From: Bacilli bacterium | GTDB taxonomy: Bacteria; Bacillota_I; Bacilli_A; RF39; UBA660 | Direction: 5' to 3' | NCBI GenBank assembly: GCA_017410525.1 | Contig: JAFQQQ010000002.1 | Coordinates: 205,591-269,590 of the forward strand | Length of the DNA: 64,000 nucleotides | Shown here: positions 3,560 through 24,059 of the stretch, piece by piece | Layout: each line of letters begins with the position of its first letter | How positions within the stretch are numbered: position 1 is the first letter of the stretch | The notes under the pieces: model-generated | The model's database searches: none | The model's input: the letters and a program-made list of their open reading frames with translations, nothing else | Told to the model about the DNA's origin: nothing | Translations under genes and position numbers: made by a program

Positions 3560-3641
3560 TGTTAAACCACTATTTTTTTCTATTTATCAATTGATATTAA
3601 CTCTTTTCTATGATAAAATTAATAAAGAATGAAGGTGTATT

Positions 3642-5145: not shown

Positions 5146-5154
5146 GGTGATAAT

Positions 5155-9568: not shown

Positions 9569-9630
9569 AAAATTTTTCTTTTTTTATAGAAAATAGTATG
9601 CATTTATGATATAGTTTAAGTGGTGGTACT

Positions 9631-10149
9631 ATGTATATTATTTCTGATGATATAAAACTTTCAGTATTAGAAGATAAGGAAGAAAATTATAAGTTATTAG
9701 AAAAATGGTGTAATAGAGAAGAAATATATAAACATTTCGAGCAAAGAATTTTAAAATATGATGAAATAGTTAATAAATATAAACCAAGGTGTAATATAAA
9801 TGCAGAAGTTCCTGTTTATATGATATATTATAAAAATAAAAAGATAGGGATTATTCAATATAAAAATATAAAGTCCAATACTTATGAATTTGATATTTTT
9901 ATTGGTGAAGTCAATCTGCACAGTAAAGGTTTGGGAGAAAAAGTAATAAAACTTATAACTAATTATTTGATTGATAATAAAGGCGCCGAAACATTCTTGC
10001 TTTGTCCGTTAAAAGAAAACGAGAAGGCTATAAAATGTTATAAAAAATGTGGATATAAAATAGTGAAAGAATATAAAGATTTTAATACGATTGGTGAAGA
10101 GAAAGAATATGTTATGATGGAGTATAATTATGAAAACAATTCTTTATAA
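9631..10149 (+). CDS. GNAT N-acetyltransferase (resembles the AAC(6')-like subgroup)
   Basis: FIGEVNLHSKGLGEKV acetyl-CoA loop and a KCGYK tail. The subgroup assignment is from memory only. Confidence 0.6.
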   Translation: MYIISDDIKLSVLEDKEENYKLLEKWCNREEIYKHFEQRILKYDEIVNKYKPRCNINAEVPVYMIYYKNKKIGIIQYKNIKSNTYEFDIFIGEVNLHSKGLGEKVIKLITNYLIDNKGAETFLLCPLKENEKAIKCYKKCGYKIVKEYKDFNTIGEEKEYVMMEYNYENNSL

Positions 10150-10636
10150 TTATGATAATTTGAAAGAAGAAAATATAAATAGAACAACTAGAAGAGCAAA
10201 AGCACTTATAATTAATTCTCAGGATAAAATATTGTTTGCTCATTCAAAAAATAATTATTTTTTTGTAGGTGGTAGAGTAGAAGAAAATGAAACATTTGAT
10301 GAATGCATTGTTAGAGAAACAAAAGAGGAAACAGGAATAGATTTGCCTTTAGAAAAAAGAGAACCTTTTTTTACTATAACTTATATGAATAAGGATTATC
10401 CTAGCTTAGGTGTTAATACTAAATCAATTACTAATTACTATTTAGTTAAGTGTGATACTAAACCTGATTTAAATGAGATAACTTTAACAGAAGAAGAAAA
10501 AAATAATAATTTTAAATTAGTTTATATTCATAAAGATAAAGCACTTGAAGAATTAAATAATAATTTAGATAATTGTTCTAATAAAAATGTAGTTAGGGAT
10601 ACAATAGAAGTTATGAAAGAATATTTAAAAATATAA
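10130..10636 (+). CDS. Nudix hydrolase
   Basis: Canonical Nudix box GRVEENETFDECIVRETKEETGI. Confidence 0.8.
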   Translation: MKTILYNYDNLKEENINRTTRRAKALIINSQDKILFAHSKNNYFFVGGRVEENETFDECIVRETKEETGIDLPLEKREPFFTITYMNKDYPSLGVNTKSITNYYLVKCDTKPDLNEITLTEEEKNNNFKLVYIHKDKALEELNNNLDNCSNKNVVRDTIEVMKEYLKI

Positions 10637-10657
10637 TAAATTAATTCAGGAGGGTTT

Positions 10658-11158
10658 ATGAAAAAATATATAGATTGTGATGGTGTTATTTTTGATTCTG
10701 AAATTTGGTTATTTGATGATGAATATAGAAGTTTAAAAATTAAAGATGAATTTAATAAAATAAAATATATTCAAACTAAAGATTGGAATGAAATATTAAG
10801 AAAAAGCGGAATTATAAATGATGCAATTAATATTTTAAAAGAATTAAGAGATTTTGCTATTTTAACAAAAGTACATTCTATGGAAAATGAAGGAGTAGCT
10901 AAAATAAAATTGTTTAGAAGTCTAGATATCAAAAACGAAATAATACTTGTGCCATATACTTTGAAAAAAACAGATGTAGTAGATCCTTGTGGTAATATTT
11001 TAGTAGATGATACAGTTCATAATTTAGATGATTGGAAAGAAGAAGGTGGAATACCAATATTCTTTAATAAAGATAACTTAGATATAGATGGATGGGGAAA
11101 AGAAAATAAAAAATATCCTAAAATTAAAAGTTTAGATTATTTAAAAAAGATAAAATAG
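10658..11158 (+). CDS. HAD-superfamily 5'(3')-deoxyribonucleotidase-like protein
   Basis: YIDCDGVIFD (DxDxV motif I) at the N-terminus, VDD near the C-terminal part. Size is about 165 aa. Confidence 0.5.
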   Translation: MKKYIDCDGVIFDSEIWLFDDEYRSLKIKDEFNKIKYIQTKDWNEILRKSGIINDAINILKELRDFAILTKVHSMENEGVAKIKLFRSLDIKNEIILVPYTLKKTDVVDPCGNILVDDTVHNLDDWKEEGGIPIFFNKDNLDIDGWGKENKKYPKIKSLDYLKKIK

Positions 11159-11167
11159 GAGATAAAT

Positions 11168-11752
11168 ATGAAAATAGTTTTAGCGACAACATCAAAATTT
11201 AAAAATGAGATAATGGATACAGTAGGTATCAAACATTCTATGATTGAAAGTGATTTTAATGAAGATTTAGTTAGTGAAAAAAATGTATATGAATACGTAA
11301 AGAAATTAGCGCTAGGTAAAGCAAGTAGTGTTAAAGAAAAAGTAAATAATTCTATAATTATAGGTCTTGATACTATTAACTATGTAGATGGTATTATTCA
11401 AGAAAAACCTAAAGATTTAAATGATGCTAGAAAAAATATAGAAATGTGTAGAAATAAGACTACTAAAGTAATAACTGGTATATGTATTATTGATCAAAAA
11501 ACTAATGAAATAATAAATACATATGCAGAGACTAAAGTAACTTTAAGAGATATAGATGATATAGATATTGATTATTATATGGAAAATGAACCTAATATTA
11601 TGTATGCGTCTGGATTTATACTTGAAACTATATTATCTAATTTTATAGATAAAATAGAAGGTAGTTACTATAATATATTAGGAGTACCAGTTGAAATAAT
11701 ATATAAATATATTAATGATATGGGATATAATTTAAAGGATATGGAGGAATAA
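11168..11752 (+). CDS. maf: Maf-family nucleoside triphosphate pyrophosphatase
   Basis: MKIVLATTS...GLDTI...GSYYNILGVP pattern typical of Maf/YhdE. Confidence 0.8.
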   Translation: MKIVLATTSKFKNEIMDTVGIKHSMIESDFNEDLVSEKNVYEYVKKLALGKASSVKEKVNNSIIIGLDTINYVDGIIQEKPKDLNDARKNIEMCRNKTTKVITGICIIDQKTNEIINTYAETKVTLRDIDDIDIDYYMENEPNIMYASGFILETILSNFIDKIEGSYYNILGVPVEIIYKYINDMGYNLKDMEE

Positions 11753-11754
11753 TT

Positions 11755-12084
11755 GTGGAACAAATATATAATAAATTAGTTAGGGATAATATACCAGAAA
11801 TAATAGAATCTAACGGAGAAAAACCTATAATAAGTATATTAGATGATAATAGATATAAAGAAGAATTAGAGAAAAAGTTATATGAAGAATATTTAGAAGT
11901 AATAGATTCTAGTTATAGTAGTAGAATAGAAGAATTAGCTGATATGTTAGAAGTCATTAGTGCTCTTGCTAAATTAGAAGATAAGACTTTGGATGATGTA
12001 GTGGAAGTAGCTAAAGAGAAAGTAAAAAAAAGAGGAGCTTTTGATAAAAAAATATTTTTAGAGAAGGTTATAAGCGATAAATAG
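11755..12084 (+). CDS. MazG-like / phosphoribosyl-ATP-pyrophosphohydrolase-like NTP pyrophosphohydrolase
   Basis: YNKLVRDNIPEII start and EELADMLEV helix pair. GTG start with a GGAGG RBS. Confidence 0.65.
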   Translation: MEQIYNKLVRDNIPEIIESNGEKPIISILDDNRYKEELEKKLYEEYLEVIDSSYSSRIEELADMLEVISALAKLEDKTLDDVVEVAKEKVKKRGAFDKKIFLEKVISDK

Positions 12085-12173: not shown

Positions 12174-13415
12174 ATGAATGAAAAATACTTAATTATTAAT
12201 GCTGGTAGTTCATCTTTAAAATTTTCTTTATATGAAATTCCAGAAGTAAAAGAAATTGTAAATGGTTGCGTAGAAAAAATAGGAAATGAAGATAGTTTTT
12301 ATACTTTAAAATATGACGATAAAAAAGAAGAAAAAGTAAAAGTAATTATGAATCATACTCAAGCTGTAGAAACTATGCTTTATGAGTTGTTAATAAATAA
12401 TTTTATAAGTGATGTTAATGAAATAAAAGGAGTAGGACATAGAGTACTACATGGTGGAGAAAAATATTTTGATTCAGTTGTAATTGACGATGAAGTTATA
12501 AACGATATAGTCGATTTAACTAAATTAGGGCCACTTCACCACCCAGGTAATTTATCAGGAATACTTGCTATGCAAAAAGCAATACCACATATACCACAAA
12601 TAGCTGTATTTGATACTTCTTTTCATCAAACAATAAATGAAGAAAATTATATATATCCTATACCATACTCTTGGTATAATGAAAATGGAGTAAGAAAATA
12701 TGGCTTTCATGGGACTAGTCATAAATATATTACGGAAACTATGCAACAATATTTAGATAAAAAAGATGTTAACTTAATAATTTGCCATATTGGTAGTGGA
12801 GCTAGTATGTCTGCAATAAAAAATGGTAAAAGCTGTGATACAACAATGGGTTTAACTCCACTAGATGGACTTATGATGGGTACTCGTTCAGGCTCTATTG
12901 ATCCATCAATTATTGAATATATTTGTAAAGAAAGAAATTTAACTGTATCTGAAGTTACTAATATTTTAAATAAAGAAAGCGGTTTAAAAGGAATAAGTGG
13001 CGTAAATGATTTCAGAGATGTAACAGCTTTAGCTAAACAAGGAAATCATAATGCAAAATTAGCTATAAAATTATTTGAAAAATCAATAGTTAAATATATC
13101 GCGCAATATTATTTTGAATTAAATGGTGATGTAGATGCTATTATATTTACTGCAGGTGTAGGAGAAAATATGTCCTACGTTAGAGAAGATATAGTTAATC
13201 TTATTTCAAAACCAATGGGTATAAAAATTAATAAAGAAATTAATGATAACATTGCTAAGTTTAAGCAATATCAAAGTGGTGTTATAACAACAGATGATTC
13301 TAAAATTAAAGTAATGGTTATACCTACTAATGAAGAATTAATGATATTAAAGGATACTGTTAGATTAACTAAAAAATCAAAAGATTTAAATAAAGAGAAA
13401 AAATTAACTAAATAA
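12174..13415 (+). CDS. ackA: Acetate kinase
   Basis: INAGSSSLKF, HRVLHGG, FDTSFH, GFHGTSH and GVGEN motifs. I prefer the ATG at 12174 (GGGGGA RBS) over 12162. Confidence 0.95.
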   Translation: MNEKYLIINAGSSSLKFSLYEIPEVKEIVNGCVEKIGNEDSFYTLKYDDKKEEKVKVIMNHTQAVETMLYELLINNFISDVNEIKGVGHRVLHGGEKYFDSVVIDDEVINDIVDLTKLGPLHHPGNLSGILAMQKAIPHIPQIAVFDTSFHQTINEENYIYPIPYSWYNENGVRKYGFHGTSHKYITETMQQYLDKKDVNLIICHIGSGASMSAIKNGKSCDTTMGLTPLDGLMMGTRSGSIDPSIIEYICKERNLTVSEVTNILNKESGLKGISGVNDFRDVTALAKQGNHNAKLAIKLFEKSIVKYIAQYYFELNGDVDAIIFTAGVGENMSYVREDIVNLISKPMGIKINKEINDNIAKFKQYQSGVITTDDSKIKVMVIPTNEELMILKDTVRLTKKSKDLNKEKKLTK

Positions 13416-13436
13416 TAATATTTTAAGGAGGGAGAT

Positions 13437-14075
13437 ATGAAAGTAATTGAGTTGGAAGAAAAATATATTTTAGAATATATAAAATATATGATTTCTAGTT
13501 TTAAAACAATACCTATAGAAATAAATAATGCTAAATATCATCATAATACAAGTTATTCTGATGTACCTTTGGTTTTAAAACAAGGTATTTTGTCGGTGTC
13601 AGAATTAAATAGATTAGGTATAAAAAAATATTCTCCTGAAATATTAAATTTATGGAGTGACATAGAGTCACATATTAATGGTATAGATTCAATATCATTA
13701 TCTGTAGTTGGTTTAAAAGATTTATATGTAGATGAATTTGAATATGATCCGTTTATACCAACAAAAGTAGATTTGAATATTTCAAGTGATATATCTACAC
13801 TAAGATCAAGTATACATTATGGAAATGAATTTTTATGTTATGAAAATATAGGAATTGATAAAATAAAATCAATTGATATAAGATTACTAGAATTAATTGA
13901 AAAAAGAAAAGATTTTACAATAAAAGATATAATAAATAAATATAATTGTTTAAAGGATGTTGCATTAGCAATTAAAGAAAATAACTTAGATATTCCTTTT
14001 AGAGAAATGTCTAATGATAATTGTGCATTAGATATAACTAAAGTGTCAGAGATGCCTAAATTAATTTTAAAATAA
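13437..14075 (+). CDS. Hypothetical protein
   Basis: 212-aa ORF with a GGAGGGAG RBS. Terminator CAAATGAAA/TTTCATTTG plus T-run lies just after the stop. No family recognised. Confidence 0.55.
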   Translation: MKVIELEEKYILEYIKYMISSFKTIPIEINNAKYHHNTSYSDVPLVLKQGILSVSELNRLGIKKYSPEILNLWSDIESHINGIDSISLSVVGLKDLYVDEFEYDPFIPTKVDLNISSDISTLRSSIHYGNEFLCYENIGIDKIKSIDIRLLELIEKRKDFTIKDIINKYNCLKDVALAIKENNLDIPFREMSNDNCALDITKVSEMPKLILK

Positions 14076-14147
14076 AGCAAATGAAAAAATTTCATTTGTT
14101 TTTTTAAAATATTTATATATAATAGAGATAGAAAAAAGGTGATTTAA

Positions 14148-14324
14148 ATGATATATATAGTAAGACATGGACAGACGGATTATAATGTAGAAGGTAGATA
14201 TGGTGGTAGGATAGGTGTAGAATTAAATATTAAAGGAATTGGGCAATCACATATCATTCATAATGAATTAAAGAATATAAAGTTTGATAATGAAAAACTA
14301 AAAGAATTACAAAAATATATATAA
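14148..14324 (+). pseudogene. Truncated histidine-phosphatase (PGAM/CobC-like) gene remnant
   Basis: My translation is MIYIVRHGQTDYNVEGRYGGRIGVELNIKGIGQSH..., which carries the RHG catalytic motif. It stops after 58 codons, whereas family members run about 190-210 aa. A start-less reading frame follows to 14503. Confidence 0.6.
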
Positions 14325-14522
14325 TAGTTCATGACAATATTGATTTTGACTCTTATTTTTCAAGTTATATATTATCTAAAATACTTCAAAGTTTAAACAC
14401 AAATGCTATTTTTACTATTTTTGATGATTATAATATTGGTGATGATGATAGAAAAATAATAGATGGTTATAAAAAAGAAAAAAATAGAATTAAACAAAAA
14501 TAGAAAAAAATGTAAAAAGGTG

Positions 14523-14551
14523 TTGACAAACAAAAAAAATTAGAGTATTAT
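14523..14551 (+). promoter_or_regulatory. Sigma-A-type promoter of the leader and RSH operon
   Basis: TTGACA (14523-14528), 17-nt spacer, TATTAT (14546-14551). Confidence 0.6.
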
Positions 14552-14593
14552 TTAATGTAATATTTTTATCTTTTTAGACAAAGGAGGAATATT

Positions 14594-14740
14594 ATGGTTA
14601 ATTGCTTTAACATAGAAAGATCAGTGATAAAATCAAAATCTAATGTTATTTGCAACAGCTTCTGCTGCAATACTTTAGTATGCTTTTCAATTCTTTCTTG
14701 TCTAAATGAAAAGATGAAAAGCGATATAGCAAAGTCTTAA
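14594..14740 (+). CDS. Small Cys-rich ORF (48 aa, 6 Cys) within the operon leader; either a RiPP-type precursor or an attenuation leader peptide
   Basis: My translation is MVNCFNIERSVIKSKSNVICNSFCCNTLVCFSILSCLNEKMKSDIAKS. A strong RBS AAAGGAGGAATATT precedes the ATG. The TAA stop (14738-14740) lies in the apical loop of the terminator hairpin. Below the size cutoff of the supplied track. Confidence 0.55.
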   Translation: MVNCFNIERSVIKSKSNVICNSFCCNTLVCFSILSCLNEKMKSDIAKS

Positions 14741-14772
14741 TGACTTTTCTTGTCGCCTTTCATCTTTTTTCT
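14709..14772 (+). terminator. Intrinsic terminator / attenuator between the leader ORF and the RSH gene
   Basis: Outer stem AAGATGAAAAGCGA (14711-14724) pairs with TCGCCTTTCATCTT (14753-14766): 13 bp plus 1 mismatch. Inner stem AAAGTC/GACTTT spans 14731-14747. A TTTTTTCTT run follows. The competing pairing is GCTTTTCA (14682-14689) with TGAAAAGC (14715-14722). Confidence 0.7.
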
Positions 14773-14803
14773 TATAAAAATATAAAAGGAAAAGGAGGGA
14801 TTT

Positions 14804-16237
14804 ATGATAACTATTGAAAAATTATTAAATCATGTAAATACTTATAATCCTGGAGAAGAAGAAATTATAAGAAAAGCTTATGAGTATGCTGATTATTTAC
14901 ATGGAAATCAAATTAGACAAAGTGGAGAACCATATATTACACATCCTTTGAATGTTGCTTATATTTTATCTGAAATGCATGCAGATAGAGATACAATATG
15001 TGCTGCACTCTTACACGATACTCTAGAAGATACAAATACAACTAAAGAAGAAATAGCTGATTTATTTAATAAAGAAATAGCTAACTTAGTAGACGGAGTA
15101 ACAAAGATAAGTAAAATGAATTTTTCTAGTAAAGCAGAACAAAATTTAGCAAACACAAGAAAAATCATAACAGGGCTTACAGAAGATGTAAGAATAATAA
15201 TAATAAAATTAGCCGATAGACTTCATAACATGAGAACTTTAGAATTTAAATCTGAATTTAAGCAAAAAGAAAATTCTTTAGAAACAATGGAAATATTTGT
15301 ACCGCTTGCTTATTATATAGGTGCTTATAGAATAAAAAGTGAGCTAGAAGATATATCTTTTAAATATTTAAAACCAGATAAATATAAAGAAATAGAACAT
15401 AGAATAAATAACTCTAGTATTGAAAATAATAATTGCTTAAATGAAATGTTATTGAATATAGAAGAAATATTAAATAATGAGTCAATACCACATGAAATAA
15501 AAGTTAGAACAAAAAATATATATGGAATATATAAAAGAATAGATAATGGAGAAAACAAAATAAGTGATATACACGATTTATTATCTTTAAAAATAATGGT
15601 AGATGATATAAAAAATTGTTATATAACACTAGGTCTTATACATGATAAATATCATCCAATAAATGGAAGATTTAAAGATTATATTTGTAATCCTAAAACA
15701 AATCTATATAAATCTTTACATTCTACAGTATTTGGGCCTAATGAAAAATTAGTACAAACACAAATAAGAACATTTGATATGGATAAAATAGCATCCTTTG
15801 GTTTAACAGCATATTGGGATATAAATAAAGGTGATGCAAGATATACTATGCAACAAGATTTAAGAGATAATTTTCAATTTTTTAAATCATTATCAGATAT
15901 AAATGTTATGTTTAAGGATAATCAAGATTTTGTATCTCAAATAAAGAATGAATTATTCGCAAATAAAATTTATGTGTATACTACTAACGGTAAAATAATA
16001 GAATTACCTAAAGGATCAAATATTATTGATTTAGCTTGTTATATGGACATAGAAAATGTATTAATAGGAGCTAAAGTAAATGATGAAATAGTTCCTATTG
16101 ATTATATTTTAAAAAATAAAGATAGGGTAATACCACTTATAGATGAATTATCTTATGGATATAGAGAAAGTTGGATAGAAAAAGCGAATACAGTTTATGC
16201 TAAAAAGAAAATAAAGGGGTTAATAGAGAGTAGGTAA
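14804..16237 (+). CDS. RelA/SpoT homologue: HD hydrolase + RelA/SpoT-type domain + TGS, lacking the usual C-terminal regulatory domains
   Basis: HD region: YITHPLNVA...LLHDTLEDT...ADRLHNMRT. Synthetase-like region: RTKNIYGIYKRI...RFKDYICNPKTNLYKSLHST...VQTQIRTFDM...ASFGLTAYW. TGS-like region: IYVYTTNGKIIELPKGSNIIDLACYM. It is 477 aa, against about 730 aa for typical long Rel proteins. Confidence 0.8.
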   Translation: MITIEKLLNHVNTYNPGEEEIIRKAYEYADYLHGNQIRQSGEPYITHPLNVAYILSEMHADRDTICAALLHDTLEDTNTTKEEIADLFNKEIANLVDGVTKISKMNFSSKAEQNLANTRKIITGLTEDVRIIIIKLADRLHNMRTLEFKSEFKQKENSLETMEIFVPLAYYIGAYRIKSELEDISFKYLKPDKYKEIEHRINNSSIENNNCLNEMLLNIEEILNNESIPHEIKVRTKNIYGIYKRIDNGENKISDIHDLLSLKIMVDDIKNCYITLGLIHDKYHPINGRFKDYICNPKTNLYKSLHSTVFGPNEKLVQTQIRTFDMDKIASFGLTAYWDINKGDARYTMQQDLRDNFQFFKSLSDINVMFKDNQDFVSQIKNELFANKIYVYTTNGKIIELPKGSNIIDLACYMDIENVLIGAKVNDEIVPIDYILKNKDRVIPLIDELSYGYRESWIEKANTVYAKKKIKGLIESR

Positions 16238-16240
16238 AAA

Positions 16241-17401
16241 ATGTTATTTAGATTAGTTGCAATTCGTTGTCATAAAAATATAATTTTCTGTGACAGTTTT
16301 AATGAAAACTTTGAAAAAATACAATTAGCAATTCCATCAGAACTTTTCAACTCATTAGGACTTAAAGTAGGTAGTGTAATTTCTACAAATTATCAAATTA
16401 CTAAAAATAAATATGGAAATGATTTGTATTTCATAAATGATGTACAAAATGTATCAAATCATAATAAAAATATATCTTTTAAATCTATAAATACAAAATT
16501 ATCATCCATGAATCAATCTAGTTTTATTAGTGCATTAAATGGTGGAGTTAATTTAAAATATTGGGAAATGAAACAAAAACTTTTAGAAGAAATTAGAAAA
16601 TTTTTAGTAAATAGAAGTTACATAGAAGTAAATACTTCATTGTTAATGGATAATAGAGGTACTAGTACTGTTAACCCTATGCAAGTAAATGGTAAATACT
16701 GTGGTAATAAATATTTAAAAATAACTCATGAATTAGAATTAAAAAAAATTTGTTATCTTACTTTAAAATCATTATTTGAGATAGGATATGTAACAAGAGA
16801 TGTATATTCTACTAGTAAATCTGCTAATCAATATTTAACATTTGAATTAGTTGCACCTATAGAAGATACATTAACAGCAGAAGAATTATATATTTATGTT
16901 TATGAGATTGCAATTAAGTTGGCTGAATCATATGGTATTTCTTATAATGAGATATTTAATAAAATAGAAACAGTGGATGTTTTAAAATTATATTTATCAA
17001 ATCATAAAAAGATTGATAAGAAAGAATTCCTTGAGTTTTATAAAAAACTATTAGAATTAGAAAAAAATATAATATATGTAAATGCGCCTACCAATACTCC
17101 TTTAGCGAAAGAATCAGAATACGGAATACCTTTAGAAACAAAATGGGCTATAGGAAATAGGGGTATAGGTCATGGATATTATGATCAAAATCAGTTATCG
17201 GTTATAGAAAATTTATTTGAATTACAAAAAGATGCACTAAAAGAAAAAGGGATAGATTCCAGTGTTGATAAAGAATACTTAATGACTTTAATGTATGCAG
17301 GTATAGATACAAAAAGTTTAAATATAGGGATTGATAGATTTATGTATAAATTTTTAGGTTTAGATCACGAAGAGAAAGCAATAAAAATATTAGGATTATA
17401 G
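16241..17401 (+). CDS. Divergent class IIb aminoacyl-tRNA-synthetase paralogue (Asp/Asn/Lys-RS-like: OB fold plus a compact catalytic core)
   Basis: N-terminal OB-fold-like pattern (LFRLVAIRCHKNIIFCDS...KIQLAI...GSVISTNYQI). Motif 1-like IRKFLVNRSYIEVNTSLL. Degenerate motif 2, GYVTRDVYSTSKSANQYLTFELVAP. Motif 3, LNIGIDRFMYKFLGL. Confidence 0.6.
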   Translation: MLFRLVAIRCHKNIIFCDSFNENFEKIQLAIPSELFNSLGLKVGSVISTNYQITKNKYGNDLYFINDVQNVSNHNKNISFKSINTKLSSMNQSSFISALNGGVNLKYWEMKQKLLEEIRKFLVNRSYIEVNTSLLMDNRGTSTVNPMQVNGKYCGNKYLKITHELELKKICYLTLKSLFEIGYVTRDVYSTSKSANQYLTFELVAPIEDTLTAEELYIYVYEIAIKLAESYGISYNEIFNKIETVDVLKLYLSNHKKIDKKEFLEFYKKLLELEKNIIYVNAPTNTPLAKESEYGIPLETKWAIGNRGIGHGYYDQNQLSVIENLFELQKDALKEKGIDSSVDKEYLMTLMYAGIDTKSLNIGIDRFMYKFLGLDHEEKAIKILGL

Positions 17402-17411
17402 AGGTGAACAA

Positions 17412-18671
17412 ATGAAAGAAGATAAAATATTATTTTTGTATCCGCCGACAGTTTATGCTAACCATAGTATGTTTAAGCATTTTACTTATTTTGGCGAAAC
17501 GATAGATGTTATAAGTAGATATTATAAAAATATAAAAGTTTTAGACTGTGCAGTTGAACAAATAGAACAAAAGATAATATTTAATAATTTTAAAGATAGT
17601 AATTTATTAGTAATGGAAATAGAACCTTATAACATAGATGTTGCACTATCTTTAGGAAAATTATATAAATCATTCAACAGTAAAGGAAAAATTATAGTAT
17701 ATGGTACTGCAATTACAATAATGCCCAATTATTTTATGAAACAACATTTATTTGATTATATAATTAATGATGGTAATTTTGCTGTTGGTATATTGGGGGT
17801 AATGAATGAAATTTTAAATACAGAATATCCTTATGAAGTTAAGAGTAAATATTATGAATTAATAAATGGTGAGTATATAATGAAGGGTGATAATTTTCAA
17901 CTTCCAATAAAAGATTGGGGTGTTGGATATAATAAATTATTACCATTAGAAAAATATAAATTTTATAATAATGGTATGTTTGAATTAACTGTTCAAACCG
18001 GTTGCCCTTTTAATTGTTCTTTTTGTTCTGAAAAAATATTATTTGATAAGTATTGTGGAACAAAATATAGAGATGTTGAAGATATTATTAAAATAATGAA
18101 AAATATTAATGACGATTTTAATGAAATATATTTTTCTGCTACAACAATGACAGCAAATAGAAAATGGACTGAAAATTTATGTACTAGATTAATTGAAGAA
18201 GGTAATAAAATGCCTTGGAGAACAGTTACTAGAATTGATTGTGTTGATGAAGAATTGTTAAAATTAATGAAAAAATCAGGATTAAAGAAAATTTGTTTTG
18301 GTGTTGAAACGTTTGATGATAAATTATTAGAAGAGATAAATAAAAAACAAAATGCAAATAATGTAATTAATATATTAAAATTATGCAATAAATTAGGTAT
18401 TAAAGCCAAAGCTTTACTTATGTTGGGTATACCAGGACAAACAGCAAAAAATGTTTTTGATACAGTGAAAATATTAAAAGATTTAAATGTGGAATATAGA
18501 TTTAAAGAATATTCTCCTATTCGTGAAGCACATATATTAGATTCTAAAAATTCTGATATCTCTGATATGATTCCTATTTTTAGTAGATATGAATATAGAA
18601 CAAGTAGTATTCCTGGAATAACTAGTGAAGAATATATGGAATTACTTTTTCCTACAGAATATGTGAGGTAG
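17412..18671 (+). CDS. Radical SAM enzyme with an N-terminal B12-binding-like domain (class B type)
   Basis: CPFNCSFC (CxxxCxxC) at about residue 198, preceded by a Rossmann-like ~150-aa domain (ILFLYPP...LLVMEIEP...IIVYGTA). Confidence 0.75.
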   Translation: MKEDKILFLYPPTVYANHSMFKHFTYFGETIDVISRYYKNIKVLDCAVEQIEQKIIFNNFKDSNLLVMEIEPYNIDVALSLGKLYKSFNSKGKIIVYGTAITIMPNYFMKQHLFDYIINDGNFAVGILGVMNEILNTEYPYEVKSKYYELINGEYIMKGDNFQLPIKDWGVGYNKLLPLEKYKFYNNGMFELTVQTGCPFNCSFCSEKILFDKYCGTKYRDVEDIIKIMKNINDDFNEIYFSATTMTANRKWTENLCTRLIEEGNKMPWRTVTRIDCVDEELLKLMKKSGLKKICFGVETFDDKLLEEINKKQNANNVINILKLCNKLGIKAKALLMLGIPGQTAKNVFDTVKILKDLNVEYRFKEYSPIREAHILDSKNSDISDMIPIFSRYEYRTSSIPGITSEEYMELLFPTEYVR

Positions 18672-18678
18672 ATTAGCA

Positions 18679-19707
18679 ATGATTGAACATTTAAAAAGTG
18701 GTTTGTCAATATCGACACATTTAGGTTGTGGATTAAAGTGCTCGTATTGTATTTTGTCAACCATGGACGGTTTTAATGAGGGCCCGGTATTACAAATTAA
18801 ACCCAAGGATTTAATATTTAAATTATTTAATGAATATGAATTTTATTGCAAAAATAAAACACCTTTAATGTTAAATAATAGAACAGATCCATTTTTACCA
18901 ACTGTAACACCGTATACTTTAGAAATTTTAGATTTATTAATTGAAAAGCAAGTCGAGTCTCCAATTATAATAATTTCAAAGTTTGCGCCGCCTACAGTTT
19001 TAAAAAAATATTTTTCTTTATTAAATATTTGTTACTTTTATTCTTATTCTGGTATAGATACTGATTTTAACTATAATAAACTTAAAAGTGATTTACAACT
19101 AATAAAAAATGTTGTTCCTAGGTCTTCTAGATTTCATTATTTTAGACCGATAATACCAGGAGTGAACGATGATTTTGAATTTATGAAAAAAATATTAAAT
19201 ATATTTAGTGAAAATGAATTTGATGCCACTGTAATTGCTGGATTTAGGGTAACTAATCTAAATAAACATTTAATAAAAAAGGAAACGATAGATGTTGAAA
19301 AAATTGATTATAATCATAAATTAGTAGATAGTAGTATATATGAAATAAATAAAATATTTAATGCCGAAAATTATCGTATATTTAGACATACTAGTTGTGC
19401 TATAGCAAACCATTTTAATTCTTTTAACAAATTAAATTATTTTTCAAAATGTGGTCATTGCTTTGAATCATGTCCTAACTATGACAACTGTTTAAATAAA
19501 AGAATAAATATTAAAGATATTTTAAAAGAACTTAAAGAAAAATTTGGTAATGAATATAATTTTAAAATTAAAGATAACAAAATTGAAATATTGTCTTTAT
19601 GTACTCAAGAATTAGTTGCTTATATAAAAAATGCTTATGGGTGTGAGATTATTGCAACCAATGTTAAATTATCAAAATCTGAAGAGGTGATTTTAGGTGA
19701 AAAATAA
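18679..19707 (+). CDS. Radical SAM enzyme (compact, with a C-terminal Cys cluster)
   Basis: GCGLKCSYC near the N-terminus. A later cluster, CAIANH...CGHCFESCPNYDNC, could hold an auxiliary Fe-S cluster. Confidence 0.65.
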   Translation: MIEHLKSGLSISTHLGCGLKCSYCILSTMDGFNEGPVLQIKPKDLIFKLFNEYEFYCKNKTPLMLNNRTDPFLPTVTPYTLEILDLLIEKQVESPIIIISKFAPPTVLKKYFSLLNICYFYSYSGIDTDFNYNKLKSDLQLIKNVVPRSSRFHYFRPIIPGVNDDFEFMKKILNIFSENEFDATVIAGFRVTNLNKHLIKKETIDVEKIDYNHKLVDSSIYEINKIFNAENYRIFRHTSCAIANHFNSFNKLNYFSKCGHCFESCPNYDNCLNKRINIKDILKELKEKFGNEYNFKIKDNKIEILSLCTQELVAYIKNAYGCEIIATNVKLSKSEEVILGEK

Positions 19708-20248
19708 TATTATAGTGGGATGCGATTTACATAATACTTTGTTATTAAGCAATGAAGCTTGGATAAAAGCATTTATAAGTCTTAATTCTAAATTGGATAT
19801 AAATGAAATTTCTAATTTTATATATAGTAAAAAATCAAGAAAAGAAATGGCTAGATTATATAATATTGATTATAATGTATTATTAAATACTTATCATAAA
19901 AATTGTATTCCTAATATAAAATTATTAAATTTTATTAAAGAACTTAAAGTTAAAGGGTTTCCTATTGTTTTAATTTCTTCATCAAGCGAAGAAAAAGTAA
20001 AAAAAGATTTAGAGAAACTAAAAGAATATATTTCTTTTGATAAAATTTATACAAAAGAAACATTTTCTAAAAGTGTTTCTAAAGATTGGGATATGGTTAT
20101 AAAAGAATATAGAGCAAAATTTATGGTATATATAGGAAATGACTATGATGAAGATATAATACATAATGATAAAGTAATATCTATTCTTTCAGGACATTTT
20201 TTTACAGAATTGAAAAAAAACGGTTTTTTAGAAGAAAGAGGTAAATAA
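19697..20248 (+). CDS. HAD-superfamily protein with variant motif I
   Basis: GCDLHNTL (DxH instead of DxD), LISSSS (motif II), GNDYDEDI (motif IV). GTG start overlaps the upstream gene by 11 nt. Confidence 0.55.
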   Translation: MKNNIIVGCDLHNTLLLSNEAWIKAFISLNSKLDINEISNFIYSKKSRKEMARLYNIDYNVLLNTYHKNCIPNIKLLNFIKELKVKGFPIVLISSSSEEKVKKDLEKLKEYISFDKIYTKETFSKSVSKDWDMVIKEYRAKFMVYIGNDYDEDIIHNDKVISILSGHFFTELKKNGFLEERGK

Positions 20249-20250
20249 AA

Positions 20251-21168
20251 ATGGAAATATATTTAAAAAAAGAAGATATAGAAAGTTATCTAATAAATCA
20301 GGAAGAAAATATAAAAAACATGATTGATAATTTAGATTCAAGTTGGCCACATTATAATGCAGTGAAAAAATTATTAGAAGAGACTATGTTAGAAATAAAA
20401 AGAAAAGATATACATTGTAATGCTGTTTTATCTTCTACTAAGCATGAACGAAAAATAGAAAAATATGTAAATTGGGTTGAGGTTTATAGACTAGCAAATT
20501 ATCATTTTTCAAAATATACTAGTAGTAATACTTCTTATAGTGAAGGATTGTTTTCAACATTACTTGCGTTAAATAGTATGTATATACATAATAAAAAAAT
20601 TAAGGATATTGGAATAATTGGTTGTGGTCCAGGAAGAAGCGTTTTAGATTTTTCTTTAGCTTATCCAGATGCCACTATTTATGGTTTAGATTATTCCTTA
20701 GTTTCCTTAGTTTTAGCAAGAAATATTGTTAGTACAAATAATAAAAATATTGAGATTATAAGAAGAGATGATGAAGTAGTATTAGATAAAGTTGAAAGCT
20801 TTAATAGGACAAATTGTAAATGGGGAATGTTTGATTTAACTAAATCTAATTTAAATGAAAAATTTGATATCGTAGTATGTTCAAATGTAATAAATTTAAT
20901 GCCTAATCATAAAGATGCTATAAATAAAATTTATGATATGATAAAACCTAATGGATATTTAATATATGCTGATTTAACTGGTTGGAGATTAGATAGAAAG
21001 AAAGAACAACAATTACTTTCTGATAAAAAAGCTATAAAAAATAGTTTTGAAAACGTAGGCTTTGAAACTATAGAATGTTTTGATGGTGGACCATATATAG
21101 AAAAAGAAAATAAAGATAATTTCACGTTTTATAAACAAACTTATTATATAGGAAGGAAGGTAAAATGA
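20251..21168 (+). CDS. Class I SAM-dependent methyltransferase
   Basis: IGIIGCGPGRSVLDF (motif I), GLDYS, VVCSNVINLM. Confidence 0.75.
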   Translation: MEIYLKKEDIESYLINQEENIKNMIDNLDSSWPHYNAVKKLLEETMLEIKRKDIHCNAVLSSTKHERKIEKYVNWVEVYRLANYHFSKYTSSNTSYSEGLFSTLLALNSMYIHNKKIKDIGIIGCGPGRSVLDFSLAYPDATIYGLDYSLVSLVLARNIVSTNNKNIEIIRRDDEVVLDKVESFNRTNCKWGMFDLTKSNLNEKFDIVVCSNVINLMPNHKDAINKIYDMIKPNGYLIYADLTGWRLDRKKEQQLLSDKKAIKNSFENVGFETIECFDGGPYIEKENKDNFTFYKQTYYIGRKVK

Positions 21169-21824
21169 AAAATATAATATTATTAAGTGGACCTGATAAA
21201 ACAAAATATTTTGCTAAGGAAATATCAAAAGAAATAAAAAATAACGTTACGCATCCAACAAATATGGTTGTAATACCGGCTGATCCAAATAATTATGAAA
21301 AAAATGATAAACAATTTAAAGGGAATGAAAGTGTAGTTGGAGTATTTAAAACATTTAAAAAAATATTTCCAGATATAAATATTGTTTTGTTAGATAATAG
21401 AGTAGATTCTACAAGTGGATTAAACAAGTTGAAGAAAGCAGATATTATTTATCTACTTGGTGGAAATCCTTTTATTCAATTAGAATACTTGCAAAAAAAT
21501 AATTATAGTGATACAATATGCAGCACAAATGCATTGGTTATGGGAGTTAGTGCTGGATCAATGAATTTAGCTGTTGATTCTTATTATTCTAAAGATGAGG
21601 ATTATCCAGAAAGTGTAATTTATAAAGGATTAGGAATTGTTGACATGACTATAGATCCACATTTTGATATTAACAATGAAGAACAGGTTAAAGAAATAAA
21701 AGTTAATTCAAAAGATAGAAAAATTATTGGTTTACCAAATGATTCAGCAATAATTGTTTCAAATAATAATATAAAATATATTGGTGATATTTATTTATTT
21801 GAAAATGGTGAATTAACTAATTAA
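21165..21824 (+). CDS. Peptidase S51 (dipeptidase E / cyanophycinase-like) family protein
   Basis: LLGGNPF, GVSAGSMN (nucleophile Ser context), DPHF. ATGA overlap with the methyltransferase gene. Confidence 0.6.
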   Translation: MKNIILLSGPDKTKYFAKEISKEIKNNVTHPTNMVVIPADPNNYEKNDKQFKGNESVVGVFKTFKKIFPDINIVLLDNRVDSTSGLNKLKKADIIYLLGGNPFIQLEYLQKNNYSDTICSTNALVMGVSAGSMNLAVDSYYSKDEDYPESVIYKGLGIVDMTIDPHFDINNEEQVKEIKVNSKDRKIIGLPNDSAIIVSNNNIKYIGDIYLFENGELTN

Positions 21825-21855
21825 TTAGTTAGTTTACAAGATAGGGGGAATTGGA

Positions 21856-23433
21856 ATGAATTGGGCATTAGAAGAAGCAAAAAAATTAGTTGAAAAGCAT
21901 CCTGAAAAGGAAGAATTTGTAATCGCATCGGGGGTTAGTCCATCTGGATTTATACACATAGGAAATTTTAGAGAAATCGTTACTACATTTTTTGTAGGTA
22001 AAGAATTAGAAAATTTAGGGAAAAAAGTTAGATTTATATTATCGTTTGATGATTTTGATAGATTTAGAAAAGTTCCTAAAGGAATGCCGGAAAGTTATAG
22101 TAAGTATATAGGAATGCCTTATACTAGTATACCTAGTCCATTTAGTGAAAATAAAACTTATGCTAAAGAAATGGAAGATATATTTGTAAGTGAATTAAAT
22201 AGACTAGGAATTAATCCTGAAACCATATCTCAAACAGAACAATATAAAAGTGGAAGATATGATGATAAAATTAAATTAGCTATGGAACAAAGAAAAAAAA
22301 TATTTGATATAATGGCTAATTATAAAACTCAAGAATTTACAGAAGAAGATAGAAATAATTATTATCCTATAAGTTTATATTGTGAAGAATGTGGTAAAGA
22401 TTCAACAACTATATTAAATTATAATGATGTAACAGGTGATGTAGAATATAAATGTACTTGTGGGCATCATCATATTCAAAATATAAATAAATGTGGTAAT
22501 ATAAAGTTACAATGGAAAATTGATTGGCCAATGAGATGGCAAAAAGAAGGGGTAATTTTTGAACCAGGTGGTAGAGATCATTCTGCAGAAAATGGAAGTT
22601 ATGCTGTATCAAAAGAAATATCTAAACGAATTTTTGAATATGAAGCACCATCCTATGTAGCCTATGATTTTATTGGTATTAAAGGCGCTAATGGTAAAAT
22701 GGCTTCATCAACAGGAAATGTTTTAACATTAACTGATTTATTAAGTGTTTATGATAAAAATATAATATTATGGTTTTATGCCAAAAATAGACCTAATCAT
22801 CAATTTAATATAGCGCTTGATGAAGATGTATTAAGATTCTATACAGAATATGATAGGATGGTAAAAGCATATTTTGAAGGTAAATTAGATGATAAAAATT
22901 CTAGTATTATATCATTAACAGGAGTAACTAGTGGGTATGTTAATAATCCTAATTTTGGATATATAGCAAACTTTTTACCGATGGTAAGTTATAAAGAAGA
23001 AGCACTTGCAAAATTATTAAGTAAAGAAAATATTGATTGTTCTACATTATATTTTAAAAATAGATTACTAAGAGCAACCAATTGGTTAGAAAAATATAAT
23101 AATAGTAAAATAAAAGTGTTAGATGAATTTAATCAAGAATATTATGAAACATTAAGTGATGAAGAAAAAGAATGGTTAGAAAAAACTTTAGTTGTTTTAC
23201 AAAATGAATATGAAACTACTCAGGATTTACAAACAGATTTATATGCTATTGTAAAAAATGGTATAGAAGATTCTAAAGAATTAAAAAATAAACAAAGAAG
23301 ATATTTTCAGATAATTTATAATTTAATTATAGGAAAAGATAATGGACCAAAAATGGGATTATTGCTATCTGCAATGGATTATGAAGTTGTAAAATCTAAA
23401 TTGCAAAAATCAAAAGAAAAAAAATTAAGATAA
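21856..23433 (+). CDS. lysK: Class I lysyl-tRNA synthetase (LysK-type)
   Basis: SGFIHIGNFREI (HIGN), GKMASSTGN (KMSKS-equivalent), Cys-rich insertion YCEECG...CTCGHHH. 525 aa. Confidence 0.8.
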   Translation: MNWALEEAKKLVEKHPEKEEFVIASGVSPSGFIHIGNFREIVTTFFVGKELENLGKKVRFILSFDDFDRFRKVPKGMPESYSKYIGMPYTSIPSPFSENKTYAKEMEDIFVSELNRLGINPETISQTEQYKSGRYDDKIKLAMEQRKKIFDIMANYKTQEFTEEDRNNYYPISLYCEECGKDSTTILNYNDVTGDVEYKCTCGHHHIQNINKCGNIKLQWKIDWPMRWQKEGVIFEPGGRDHSAENGSYAVSKEISKRIFEYEAPSYVAYDFIGIKGANGKMASSTGNVLTLTDLLSVYDKNIILWFYAKNRPNHQFNIALDEDVLRFYTEYDRMVKAYFEGKLDDKNSSIISLTGVTSGYVNNPNFGYIANFLPMVSYKEEALAKLLSKENIDCSTLYFKNRLLRATNWLEKYNNSKIKVLDEFNQEYYETLSDEEKEWLEKTLVVLQNEYETTQDLQTDLYAIVKNGIEDSKELKNKQRRYFQIIYNLIIGKDNGPKMGLLLSAMDYEVVKSKLQKSKEKKLR

Positions 23434-23456
23434 ACTAAATTTGTTTATCTTTTTTG
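23428..23456 (+). terminator. Intrinsic terminator closing the operon
   Basis: AGATAAAC (23428-23435) pairs with GTTTATCT (23443-23450), followed by TTTTT. Confidence 0.7.
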
Positions 23457-23514
23457 TGTTATAATAAGATTGTAGGGGATAAGTATAATGAAAAAAATTA
23501 TTTAAGGAGGAAAT

Positions 23515-23997
23515 ATGATAAGAGAAGCTTTAGAAAAAGATGCTGAGAGAATTGTATATATTAATGTAATGTCTTGGAAAAATACGTATAAACATATTTT
23601 TCCACAAGATTTTTTAGATAGTCTTAATCCTATGAGTATTGATAATATTGAAAAATGTAAGAAAAAAATAAATCAATATATAGTATATGAAGTTGATAAT
23701 AAGGTAGTAGGGTTTGCTAGATTTGGATTAAATAAGAAAAATTATGGTAATGAGTATGGAGAAATACATGCTTTATATTTAGATGATAATTATAAGGGAA
23801 TGAATATAGGAACTGAGCTTGTAAAGTATATATTTGAAAAATTGAAGTCAACATATAAATATGTCTTGATAAGTACTTTAGTTGAAAATAATGCTAATAC
23901 ATTTTATAAAAAATTAGGTGGAAAATTTATAGGTCAAAGTGAATTTGAATTAGAAGGTAAAAAATATTTAGAAAATGTATATGAATATGTTTTATAA
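23515..23997 (+). CDS. GNAT N-acetyltransferase
   Basis: ALYLDDNYKGMNIGTELV acetyl-CoA-binding loop. 160 aa. Confidence 0.75.
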   Translation: MIREALEKDAERIVYINVMSWKNTYKHIFPQDFLDSLNPMSIDNIEKCKKKINQYIVYEVDNKVVGFARFGLNKKNYGNEYGEIHALYLDDNYKGMNIGTELVKYIFEKLKSTYKYVLISTLVENNANTFYKKLGGKFIGQSEFELEGKKYLENVYEYVL

Positions 23998-24059
23998 TTG
24001 ATATAAAAATATATATAACTATAATAAGAAAGATTTCTATTTTTATAGAAATAAAAAAG

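Follow-up and report, generated by a model that had tools for sequence, protein, structure and literature searches.

What does a shortened relative of an aminoacyl-tRNA synthetase (aaRS) do in an operon of radical S-adenosylmethionine (SAM) enzymes? The question is raised by a gene at positions 16241–17401 of the window, by which we mean the whole 64-kb stretch of contig JAFQQQ010000002.1 from a Bacilli bacterium that was analysed. The gene encodes a protein of 386 residues, referred to here as the compact paralogue, which is the sole class IIb-like open reading frame (ORF) of the window; an identical protein (IJE04_01995) stands in the databases as a hypothetical protein of a 'Bacilli bacterium' metagenome-assembled genome (MAG). 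We found that the compact paralogue derives from class II lysyl-tRNA synthetase (LysRS) and that its family has lost ligands of Mg2+ and ATP while keeping the positions that in LysRS recognise tRNALys and lysine. We propose, with a probability of roughly 40%, that it is a non-activating handler of Lys-tRNALys in a tRNA-dependent pathway of lysine tailoring or lysyl transfer, a reading drawn from sequence and gene context.

Ancestry in class II LysRS

A preliminary description of the locus had recognised a compact class IIb aaRS paralogue of Asp, Asn or Lys parentage. The ORF and the motif strings quoted for it are present on the plus strand, with IRKFLVNRSYIEVNTSLL at residues 118–135, TRDVYSTSKSANQYLTFEL at residues 185–203 and the motif 3 sequence GIDRF, its arginine kept, at residues 363–367. 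The Pfam model tRNA-synt_2 (D/K/N) covers residues 108–375 with 31.4 bits, only slightly over its gathering score of 25 (E = 1.3e-7). The best NCBIfam matches are to lysS models, EpmA and LysX, all far under their cutoffs: the canonical LysRS models gave 48.1 bits against 427.6 (TIGR00499) and 48.2 bits against 468 (NF001756), and the EpmA models 33 bits against 286.9 (TIGR00462) and 37 bits against 264 (NF006828). Among the NCBIfam models, the best score for aspartyl-tRNA synthetase (AspRS) reached only E = 3e-4, asparaginyl-tRNA synthetase (AsnRS) gave no match, and AsnA gave none at E 0.01 or better.

Structures and family profiles sharpen this picture. By phmmer, the PDB sequences closest to the protein are those of E. 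coli LysS and LysU, and each of the 50 PDB structures that Foldseek ranked highest is a class II LysRS (E-values as low as 4.7e-21, TMq of about 0.7). A profile of 17 family members aligned with Methanosarcina class II LysRS at an hhalign probability of 98.6% over 379 columns, from the OB (oligonucleotide/oligosaccharide-binding) fold through motif 3, with residues 1–73 of the paralogue set against residues 77–155 of LysRS. A profile of 28 sequences matched 34 sequences of solved LysRS with E-values of 1e-38 to 4e-30, against about 1e-15 for EpmA/GenX, 1e-13 or worse for AspRS and 1e-3 for AsnRS, and thus favours LysRS over EpmA by more than 20 orders of magnitude. The compact paralogue is therefore derived from class II LysRS specifically, not from AspRS or AsnRS and not from EpmA. 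The class IIb parentage first assigned to it holds for its lysine branch and falls for the other two: an AspRS or AsnRS origin is ruled out, since profile and fold matches alike favour LysRS, and with the parent so defined the Asp and Asn alternatives, together with the proposed refutation by finding it to be the only aspS or asnS of the genome, do not apply. A paralogue of the AsnA type is likewise ruled out by the OB domain and the lack of an AsnA match.

The AlphaFold2 model of the protein (pLDDT 83.6, pTM 0.83) has a β1–3/helix/β4–5 domain at residues 2–72, with strands predicted at residues 2–4, 7–10, 14–20, 26–32, 46–55 and 61–72, followed by a class II core. The hhalign alignment, the model and the Foldseek matches all agree on an N-terminal OB fold of LysRS type, as had been suspected from the sequence pattern. 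Relative to LysRS, it has no N-terminal helix and has lost most of the insertion that separates motif 2 from motif 3. The protein is indeed shorter than the canonical enzymes (the solved class II LysRS chains have 482–597 residues and the shortest AspRS chains 422–438), and that it is not a standard synthetase is borne out by a score of 48 bits against the lysS equivalog cutoff of 427.6 and by the loss of its Mg2+/ATP ligands described below.

Recognition residues are kept and Mg-ATP ligands are lost

Conservation was counted over 35 relatives with 21–75% identity to the window protein. Residues such as E264, H270, E414 and E421 carry LysU numbering, and residues such as R186 and Y198 the numbering of the window protein; the equivalences come from the phmmer alignment, which reproduced the published LysU numbering. 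The triad that reads U35 of the anticodon is widely kept, with R9 as R in 28/35 and K in 3/35, F16 as F in 31/35 and Q28 as Q in 29/35. Docking of the paralogue on a U35 anticodon, which the preliminary description had entertained, is plausible because this triad is conserved across the 35 relatives. The acids of the lysine pocket are kept as well: E164 (LysU E240) in 34/35, E202 (E278) in 35/35, and D315, a conservative change from E428, as D in 28/35 and E in 2/35. In the window protein, R186 corresponds to the motif 2 arginine R262, R366 to the motif 3 arginine R480, and Y198 to the adenine-stacking F274.

The residues that serve Mg-ATP in LysRS fare differently. E264 is replaced by V188 and is absent in 35/35 relatives. 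The Mg2+ ligand E421 is replaced by G308, and the position is acidic in 0/35. The second Mg2+ ligand, E414, has become K301, at a position that is K in 15/35, E in 9/35 and R in 4/35. H270 (here S194) is retained in only 13/35, and N271 is lost to A195. Nearby, N424 has changed to H311 and Y280 to V204, and Y313 occupies the hairpin position of F426. The degenerate motif 2 noted at first sight is thus real as to E264 and H270, but its arginine is not lost, nor is its aromatic stacking residue; the loss of both Mg2+-binding carboxylates had gone unnoticed.

One distant subgroup, P0174–P0177, has lost the arginines of both motif 2 and motif 3 and keeps the OB triad and the pocket acids. What is conserved is thus tRNA and lysine recognition rather than ATP chemistry, as this arginine-less subgroup retains the former. 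Members of subgroup 2 have a near-canonical motif 2 (FRNMG..DH..EY) and retain E414. Newly fixed residues surround the former reaction centre, namely E299 (always E or D), H311 (34/35), D187, the RGTS loop and W302, and H163 is a further new invariant residue of the family. On our reading, selection has probably maintained the recognition of tRNA and lysine and not the classical Mg-ATP activation, and the active site probably still does something specific.

A rare and unnamed family

About 30 full-length homologues with 29–99% identity share 28 invariant columns, and the reading frame is intact in all of them, which speaks against a chance ORF. A word-indexed search of 5.8 billion proteins returned about 30 clusters of the paralogue, none of them functionally named, and no names for the partner radical SAM families either. 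In an exhaustive profile search of 1.84 billion representatives, 41 had E < 1e-30; these are compact proteins of about 350–420 residues and a few fusions, and lower scores grade into true class IIb synthetases. Close relatives occur in 5 of 185,579 species genomes, hosted by gut Bacilli, 'Tenericutes', Erysipelotrichaceae MAGs, Lachnoclostridium sp. An131 and a Lachnospiraceae MAG, and metagenomes added seven further loci. The viral contigs, phage records and plasmid records held no relatives, and full-text literature searches found no published description of the family, which appears to be rare, unnamed and undescribed. Fusions of the paralogue to a radical SAM enzyme (P0030 and P0160) and to a thymidylate-kinase-like domain also occur.

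A conserved radical SAM cassette surrounds the paralogue

In the window the paralogue belongs to a tightly packed run of genes on one strand that encode, in order, a short Rel protein, the paralogue, two radical SAM proteins, a HAD protein, a methyltransferase, an S51 serine hydrolase and a full-length class I LysRS (Table 1). We refer to the two radical SAM proteins, of 419 and 342 residues, as rSAM419 and rSAM342. The methyltransferase is found in cassettes of the window type and the Lachnospiraceae type and in L031, where L0xx denotes a fetched locus of a relative (and P0xxx, above, a relative of the paralogue). Of the window radical SAM enzymes, rSAM419 resembles B12-rSAM families and rSAM342 has no family match; neither resembles the lysine aminomutases of KamA type. 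An EpmA-like ligase of elongation factor P (EF-P) was rejected because the OB domain is present, a KamA-type radical SAM enzyme is absent and the ORFs inspected around the cassette include no efp.

The context of the relatives was read from six-frame ORFs of all fetched loci, searched with the window proteins, and from tables of called genes. The conserved cassette consists of the paralogue, rSAM419, rSAM342 and the HAD protein, often with the methyltransferase and S51. The same neighbours recur in about 10 independent lineages, and rSAM419, rSAM342 and the HAD protein accompany the paralogue in varied gene orders in Bacilli, Lachnospiraceae and a Marsarchaeota archaeon. rSAM419 adjoins the paralogue in every lineage bar the kinase-type L030. 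This recurrence upholds one half of the earlier suggestion of an amino-acid ligase in the operon's pathway, its tie to the operon; the other half, an ordinary ATP-dependent ligase, is disfavoured by the ligands lost across the family. Overall, the cassette nearly always includes radical SAM enzymes and, where the flanking sequence suffices, often a full-length LysRS.

The individual cassettes are given here with the identity of their paralogue to the window protein in brackets. L012 (48%) has S51, paralogue, rSAM419, rSAM342, HAD and CYTH genes, and L004 (40%) a recombinase gene, paralogue, rSAM419, rSAM342, HAD and S51. L014 (35%) reads S51, GNAT, paralogue, rSAM419, rSAM342, HAD. In L009 (43%), GNAT, paralogue, rSAM419, rSAM342 and HAD genes converge on a NUDIX gene, the gene of a class I LysRS that bears a tRNA_bind domain, and a pair of tRNA-Lys genes. 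The Lachnospiraceae type (L010, L021, L022, L026 and L028; about 39%) has a class I LysRS with tRNA_bind, rSAM419, rSAM342, HAD, methyltransferase, paralogue and an S51-like gene. In L002 and L029 (both about 30%) a MoaA/viperin-like radical SAM gene, the paralogue and large B12/rSAM proteins stand together; in L029 the gene immediately upstream encodes a tRNA_bind-bearing class I LysRS, and genes for a glycosyltransferase, an acyl-AMP ligase and an SDR protein lie alongside. L001 encodes a radical SAM enzyme fused to the paralogue. The Marsarchaeota locus L017 has a histidine-ammonia-lyase-like gene, rSAM419, paralogue, rSAM342 and a HAD-like gene. L031, of subgroup 2, has a radical SAM gene, the paralogue, a divergent class II LysRS of 539 residues, an rSAM342-like gene, HAD and methyltransferase. 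In L030, of subgroup 3, one strand carries S51 and a bacterial-type class I LysRS, and the other an AAA_28 kinase-like gene, S51 and a paralogue fused to a thymidylate-kinase domain; this locus adjoins type I restriction-modification genes and a PIN gene. S51 thus recurs in L004, L012, L014, L026 (a weak match) and twice in L030.

The family of rSAM342 is broader than that of the paralogue, with more than 130 clusters that include Paenibacillus, Marsarchaeota and Parvarchaeota (DPANN archaea included). Its AlphaFold2 model (pLDDT 92) has a confident, generic radical SAM fold. Sequence and fold searches gave only generic radical SAM likeness and no specific function: the best TM-score, 0.5, was to spore photoproduct lyase, the best E-value was to SuiB, and there was a motif-level match to Cfr/RlmN. 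Besides C17, C21 and C24, the cysteines C240, C261, C265 and C271 are invariant and may hold an auxiliary cluster.

One counterpart of the cassette lacks any aaRS-like gene. In Paenibacillus sp. FSL K6-2524 (L016), the trio rSAM342–HAD–rSAM419 lies beside a stand-alone amino-acid adenylation domain (TIGR01733, 297 bits, DltA-like) and two carrier proteins, and further neighbours encode two alpha/beta hydrolases, a GT2 glycosyltransferase and an rSAM/SPASM protein. By analogy, this arrangement suggests that adenylation domain, carrier and hydrolase in Paenibacillus may be the functional equivalents of LysRS, tRNALys with the paralogue, and S51 elsewhere.

A full-length LysRS recurs beside the paralogue

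The full-length LysRS of the operon, which the preliminary description had not connected with the paralogue, has counterparts elsewhere. Six independent lineages have a full-length LysRS gene next to that of the paralogue, and four kinds of enzyme are represented: archaeal-type class I in the window, class I with a C-terminal tRNA_bind domain in L009, L010/L021/L022 and L029, bacterial-type class I in L030 (NF001968, 799 bits) and divergent class II in L031. The class I enzymes with tRNA_bind are mutually 57–79% identical and their partner paralogues only 30–36% (closest pair 59%). The class II LysRS of L031 (positions 3386–5005; 539 residues) scores exactly at its subfamily cutoff of 468 bits and has histidine in place of both F274 and E414, and by its sequence could be resistant or otherwise atypical.

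The usual lysS neighbourhood in Firmicutes is dus-greA-lysS. In L022 (region 1847–5637), a canonical class II lysS (TIGR00499, 671 bits) follows dus and greA directly upstream of the cassette class I LysRS, so that a stretch of 10 kb holds class II lysS, a tRNA_bind-bearing class I LysRS and the compact paralogue. With class II lysS present upstream, the class I LysRS of this organism is an additional copy tied to the cassette. In L021 (Lachnoclostridium sp. An131, contig NZ_NFLI01000022; 2633–6193), the order is dus, greA, a metallophosphoesterase gene and class I LysRS, and the slot is without a class II gene. Together the two loci may be a snapshot of the displacement of one LysRS class by the other. 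The genome record of Lachnoclostridium sp. An131 is named as a strain rather than a MAG, and a culture may exist. Both LysRS classes were present in one genome in only 39 of about 2,560 genomes surveyed (PMC5388404), a rarity that makes chance a very unlikely cause of the adjacency seen at the cassette.

Features of the locus and its surroundings

Table 1. Features of the paralogue gene and its operon (window coordinates).
Feature	Position	Strand	Basis
Best sigma-70-like promoter match, 5' of Rel	14523..14551	+	Consensus only; number of matches equals shuffle expectation
Short Rel/SpoT, 477 aa; HD, synthetase and TGS domains	14804..16237	+	Pfam, NCBIfam
Compact class II LysRS paralogue, OB fold and catalytic core, 386 aa	16241..17401	+	ORF from ATG to stop; PF00152
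OB-fold anticodon-binding-type domain, residues 1–72, triad R9/F16/Q28	16241..16456	+	LysRS alignment; predicted strands
Motif 1 region, residues 118–135; serine in place of the usual proline	16592..16645	+	Sequence alignments
Family-specific RGTS loop (139–142) and ITHELELKK (161–169) with E164 = LysU E240	16655..16747	+	Invariant or near-invariant columns
Remodelled motif 2, residues 185–203	16793..16849	+	Residue-by-residue alignment to LysU/LysS; conservation counts
Beta-hairpin that carries the Mg2+ ligands in LysRS	17129..17188	+	E299, K301, G308, H311, Y313 and D315 aligned
Motif 3 GIDRF, R366 = LysU R480	17327..17341	+	Alignment; motif position
rSAM419, B12-binding/rSAM-type radical SAM enzyme, 419 aa	17412..18671	+	PF04055; HpnJ, PhpK and B12-rSAM NCBIfam matches
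rSAM342, second radical SAM protein, 342 aa	18679..19707	+	CX3CX2C at residues 17–24; no Pfam/NCBIfam family
HAD-superfamily protein, 183 aa	19697..20248	+	PF13419; conserved cassette member
Class I SAM-dependent methyltransferase, 305 aa	20251..21168	+	Pfam
Peptidase_S51 serine hydrolase (PepE/cyanophycinase family), 219 aa	21165..21824	+	Pfam, NCBIfam
Full-length class I LysRS, 525 aa, final operon gene	21856..23433	+	TIGR00467, 415 bits against a cutoff of 147.6

Base composition is strongly AT-biased in the window (about 24% GC), and it does not break at the cassette region. No terminator-like site was found within 13400–24200 and nothing notable in the way of repeats within the operon. 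No riboswitch, T-box or leader RNA matched Rfam at gathering thresholds, and at E <=1 the matches within 13900–24200 were noise. The operon gave no Pfam or NCBIfam match to a LanB-like PEARL (peptide aminoacyl-tRNA ligase). The intergenic gaps are <=31 nt, which leaves no room in the window operon for the carrier peptide of a ribosomally synthesised and post-translationally modified peptide or pearlin; such a peptide was rejected here, and elsewhere there are only sporadic small ORFs, of 43 aa in L002 and 76 aa in L012.

The window Rel protein is without the C-terminal regulatory domains and its gene ends 3 nt 5' of the paralogue; it may belong to the system. Two unrelated cassettes have nearby, on the minus strand, a 480-aa relative with HD and TGS domains and no detectable synthetase domain (L002:1182-2624 and L026:4293-5735). 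The 728-bp gap 5' of Rel holds a 58-aa ORF at 14148-14324 (MIYIVRHGQTDYN...) that resembles the 5' fragment of a histidine-phosphatase gene (RHG motif) and is probably a pseudogene remnant. An imperfect inverted repeat of 42 nt is found at 14683-14794. The 212-aa ORF at 13437-14075 matches neither Pfam nor NCBIfam, and it is not conserved at the corresponding place before the relatives' cassettes. Farther upstream, a run of nucleotide house-cleaning type (9071-12084) comprises NUDIX (9071-9568), GNAT (9631-10149), NUDIX (10130-10636), Maf (11168-11752) and a 109-aa MazG-like ORF with no Pfam hit (11755-12084); relatives with 74% identity (L005) also have NUDIX, Ham1 and HD genes upstream. Directly 3' of the class I LysRS, 23515-24767 encodes one GNAT and one HD protein.

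Two other loci have distinctive surroundings. In L009, tRNA-Lys(CUU) and tRNA-Lys(UUU) genes (9871-10033) lie directly beside the cassette class I LysRS, in a region whose ParD, AbiEii and HTH genes give it the look of a mobile element. These ordinary tRNA-Lys genes are the only tRNA genes near a cassette; no suppressor or otherwise unusual tRNA was found near any cassette, and a recoding of pyrrolysine type is thereby ruled out. In L017, the histidine-ammonia-lyase-like gene (3715-5412; NF006871, 536 bits) precedes the cassette and a convergent histidyl-tRNA synthetase (HisRS) gene follows it (9590-10915), which may be a coincidence or a link to histidine.

The PADLOC defence models gave no match for the paralogue, rSAM342, HAD, S51 or the class I LysRS, and weak generic matches only for Rel, rSAM419 and the methyltransferase. 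A known anti-phage defence system was ruled out, with nothing meaningful from PADLOC.

A proposed handler of Lys-tRNALys

The ancestry, the kept and lost residues and the gene associations given above are observations, and every chemical step that follows is inferred from them. The compact paralogue would be a repurposed class II LysRS that has given up the activation of lysine with ATP, holding tRNALys through its OB fold and the lysyl group through its lysine pocket. The co-encoded full-length LysRS, class I in the window, would make Lys-tRNALys. The paralogue would then bind Lys-tRNALys and either present the tethered lysine to the tailoring enzymes or pass the lysyl group to an acceptor. 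Tailoring may fall to the two radical SAM enzymes, one of them of B12 type, together with the HAD protein and the methyltransferase, and the S51 serine hydrolase would release or process the product. In this scheme tRNALys and LysRS would stand in for the carrier protein and adenylation domain of Paenibacillus, and the extra LysRS may shield the producer from a lysine-like product.

Several points weigh against this proposal. We know of no radical SAM enzyme that acts on an aminoacyl-tRNA. R186, R366 and the adenine-stacking Y198 are kept in the subgroup of the window protein, so nucleotide binding and some ATP chemistry are possible, and HisRS provides a precedent for an arginine in place of Mg2+. 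The confidence of the AlphaFold2 model is low in the loops that line the active site (134–161 and 188–194). L030 (337-6911) is without radical SAM genes and has kinases, S51 peptidases and LysRS only. No LysRS was found in L004, L012 and L014 within the available sequence, and the class I LysRS of the window may simply be the sole housekeeping LysRS of its genome.

A bolder form of the proposal, which we hold tentatively and on analogy, is that the paralogue is a LysRS-derived class II counterpart of the cyclodipeptide synthases. It would use Lys-tRNALys as its substrate, with tRNALys as the tailoring carrier or lysyl donor and the LysRS of each cassette as both loader and protection. If this were so, cassettes of this kind could be what drives the uneven displacement of class II LysRS by class I among bacteria, as the comparison of L022 with L021 might illustrate.

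Alternative explanations

The strongest rival, although unlikely, is that the paralogue remains an ATP-dependent synthetase or ligase. It might act on a lysine analogue made by the radical SAM enzymes and charge it to tRNALys or another acceptor, or it might build a LysRS inhibitor resembling lysyl-adenylate, with the second LysRS conferring self-resistance. The retention of R186, R366 and Y198 speaks for it, as does subgroup 2 with its near-canonical motif 2 and E414, and K301 or E299 could make up for the lost Mg2+ ligand. The frequent nucleotide-related neighbours and fusions (MoaA/viperin-like radical SAM, thymidylate kinase, AAA_28, NUDIX, HAD and CYTH) keep this explanation alive, and the recruitment of four LysRS types, including the L031 enzyme with its altered ATP pocket, is like self-resistance by target duplication in gene clusters for aaRS inhibitors. 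The S51 and GNAT neighbours parallel the immunity logic of MccF and MccE. The loss of E421, the main class II Mg2+ ligand, and of E264, the reader of adenine N6, in every one of the 35 relatives argues against it. E414 and H270 are dispensable across subgroups that have the same partner genes, and one subgroup is without both motif arginines. Catalytic aaRS paralogues such as EpmA, AsnA and the amino acid:carrier-protein ligases are not known to have lost these Mg2+/ATP ligands, which also weighs against it. Simple ATP-dependent ligation by the paralogue is unlikely in particular, because E421 is lost family-wide and E414, H270 and even the arginines of motifs 2 and 3 are variably lost.

It is distinctly unlikely that the paralogue is an inert binder: a decoy for a toxin resembling lysine or lysyl-adenylate, a HisZ-like recognition or regulatory subunit, or a sensor of lysine or tRNALys tied to Rel. 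Loss of Mg2+/ATP ligands is typical of non-catalytic aaRS paralogues, the fusions to radical SAM and kinase domains suit a domain used for targeting or recognition, three unrelated cassettes have a short Rel or HD+TGS protein nearby, and L030 resembles a resistance island, with no biosynthetic genes. The invariant polar residues (H311 in 34/35, the always acidic E299, D187 and RGTS) point instead to chemistry or specific ligand binding. A small-molecule decoy would have no need of the conserved anticodon-reading triad, and most lineages show no association with Rel.

Less probable still is that the paralogue targets its partner enzymes to tRNALys for modification, protection or repair, as in a conflict with phage or anticodon nucleases, with a dedicated LysRS needed for the altered tRNA, on which the host enzyme would act poorly. 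The conserved U35 triad fits this explanation, and so do the two tRNA-Lys genes beside the L009 cassette LysRS in a mobile-looking region (ParD, AbiEii), the type I restriction-modification and PIN genes beside L030, the tRNA_bind domain added to the cassette LysRS in four loci examined and the nearby TGS-domain proteins; TGS domains bind the CCA end of tRNA. The Paenibacillus trio, with its adenylation domain, carriers and glycosyltransferase, points rather to small-molecule chemistry. PADLOC gave no match for the paralogue, and none of its relatives is in the viral, phage or plasmid records. The lysine pocket would be superfluous, and the S51 peptidase would be without an obvious role.

A functionless relic of a class II lysS displaced by class I LysRS, as the short protein, its degenerate motifs and the operon shared with class I LysRS might suggest, is effectively refuted by the conservation data, namely about 30 intact homologues down to 29% identity with 28 invariant columns, a spread from bacteria to archaea with conserved partners, new conserved residues and functional fusions.

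The handling of Lys-tRNALys by a non-activating paralogue thus remains our preferred reading. The linkage to radical SAM enzymes and, convergently, to LysRS points to one of three outcomes: a modified lysine or lysyl conjugate made in a tRNA-dependent way, a LysRS-directed antimetabolite with resistance, or a new handling of tRNALys. Any of the three would be new. The system could also bear on the long-standing puzzle posed by the patchy exchange of the two LysRS classes for one another among bacteria.

Comparison with known systems

The closest comparison is with class II LysRS itself (LysS/LysU, TIGR00499). Both proteins have an OB domain followed by a class II core in which motifs 1–3 are recognisable, and the paralogue keeps the U35 triad, the pocket acids, the arginines of motifs 2 and 3 and the aromatic residue that stacks on adenine. 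They differ in length (about 490–510 aa against 386 aa), in the replacement of E264, H270, N271, E414 and E421 and the new invariants RGTS, H163, D187, E299 and H311, and in the location of the paralogue in a radical SAM operon next to a real LysRS.

EpmA (PoxA/GenX) is also derived from LysRS, has a non-translational role and is genetically linked to a radical SAM enzyme. Unlike the paralogue, which keeps the OB domain, EpmA has about 325 aa and is without it, and EpmA keeps its ATP/Mg2+ ligands. EpmA is linked to efp and to epmB, which encodes a KamA-type aminomutase, whereas the cassette radical SAM enzymes are not of KamA/EpmB type and the ORFs inspected near the cassette include no efp.

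The cyclodipeptide synthases resemble the paralogue in proposed logic only: a relative of an aaRS core that has lost ATP activation and kept its amino-acid pocket, takes an aminoacyl-tRNA as substrate and is encoded with tailoring enzymes. They have a class I Rossmann fold and no anticodon-binding domain, in contrast to the class II antiparallel sheet of the paralogue. Nothing here points to a cyclodipeptide product, and the use of aminoacyl-tRNA by the paralogue is a proposal.

TRNA-dependent tailoring logic of this kind exists in the pearlin pathways: an amino acid from aminoacyl-tRNA is loaded on a carrier, a cobalamin radical SAM enzyme and a SAM methyltransferase then modify it, and a peptidase sets the product free (PMC9303977). 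Those pathways use a PEARL and a carrier peptide, neither of which is recognisable in the window operon, where the tRNA handler would instead be derived from an aaRS.

Self-resistance copies of synthetases, such as the mupirocin-resistant isoleucyl-tRNA synthetase, share with the cassettes an extra synthetase of the same specificity within a cluster of accessory enzymes (for the concept, see PMC5388404), and here too different LysRS types have been recruited by different cassette lineages. The cases differ in that no inhibitor is known here, the window LysRS might be the only one of its genome, and the paralogue has no counterpart there.

HisZ and other non-catalytic paralogues are likewise kin of class II aaRSs that have lost catalytic ligands and work with partner enzymes. 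HisZ is derived from HisRS, has no anticodon-binding domain and regulates HisG, whereas the family of the compact paralogue has that domain together with new polar residues in the active site. This LysRS-derived family appears to be undescribed, and it is the first known to us in which the anticodon-binding domain is kept and the Mg2+/ATP ligands are lost. Earlier repurposed synthetase paralogues, among them EpmA, AsnA, HisZ and the cyclodipeptide synthases, have each revealed new biochemistry.

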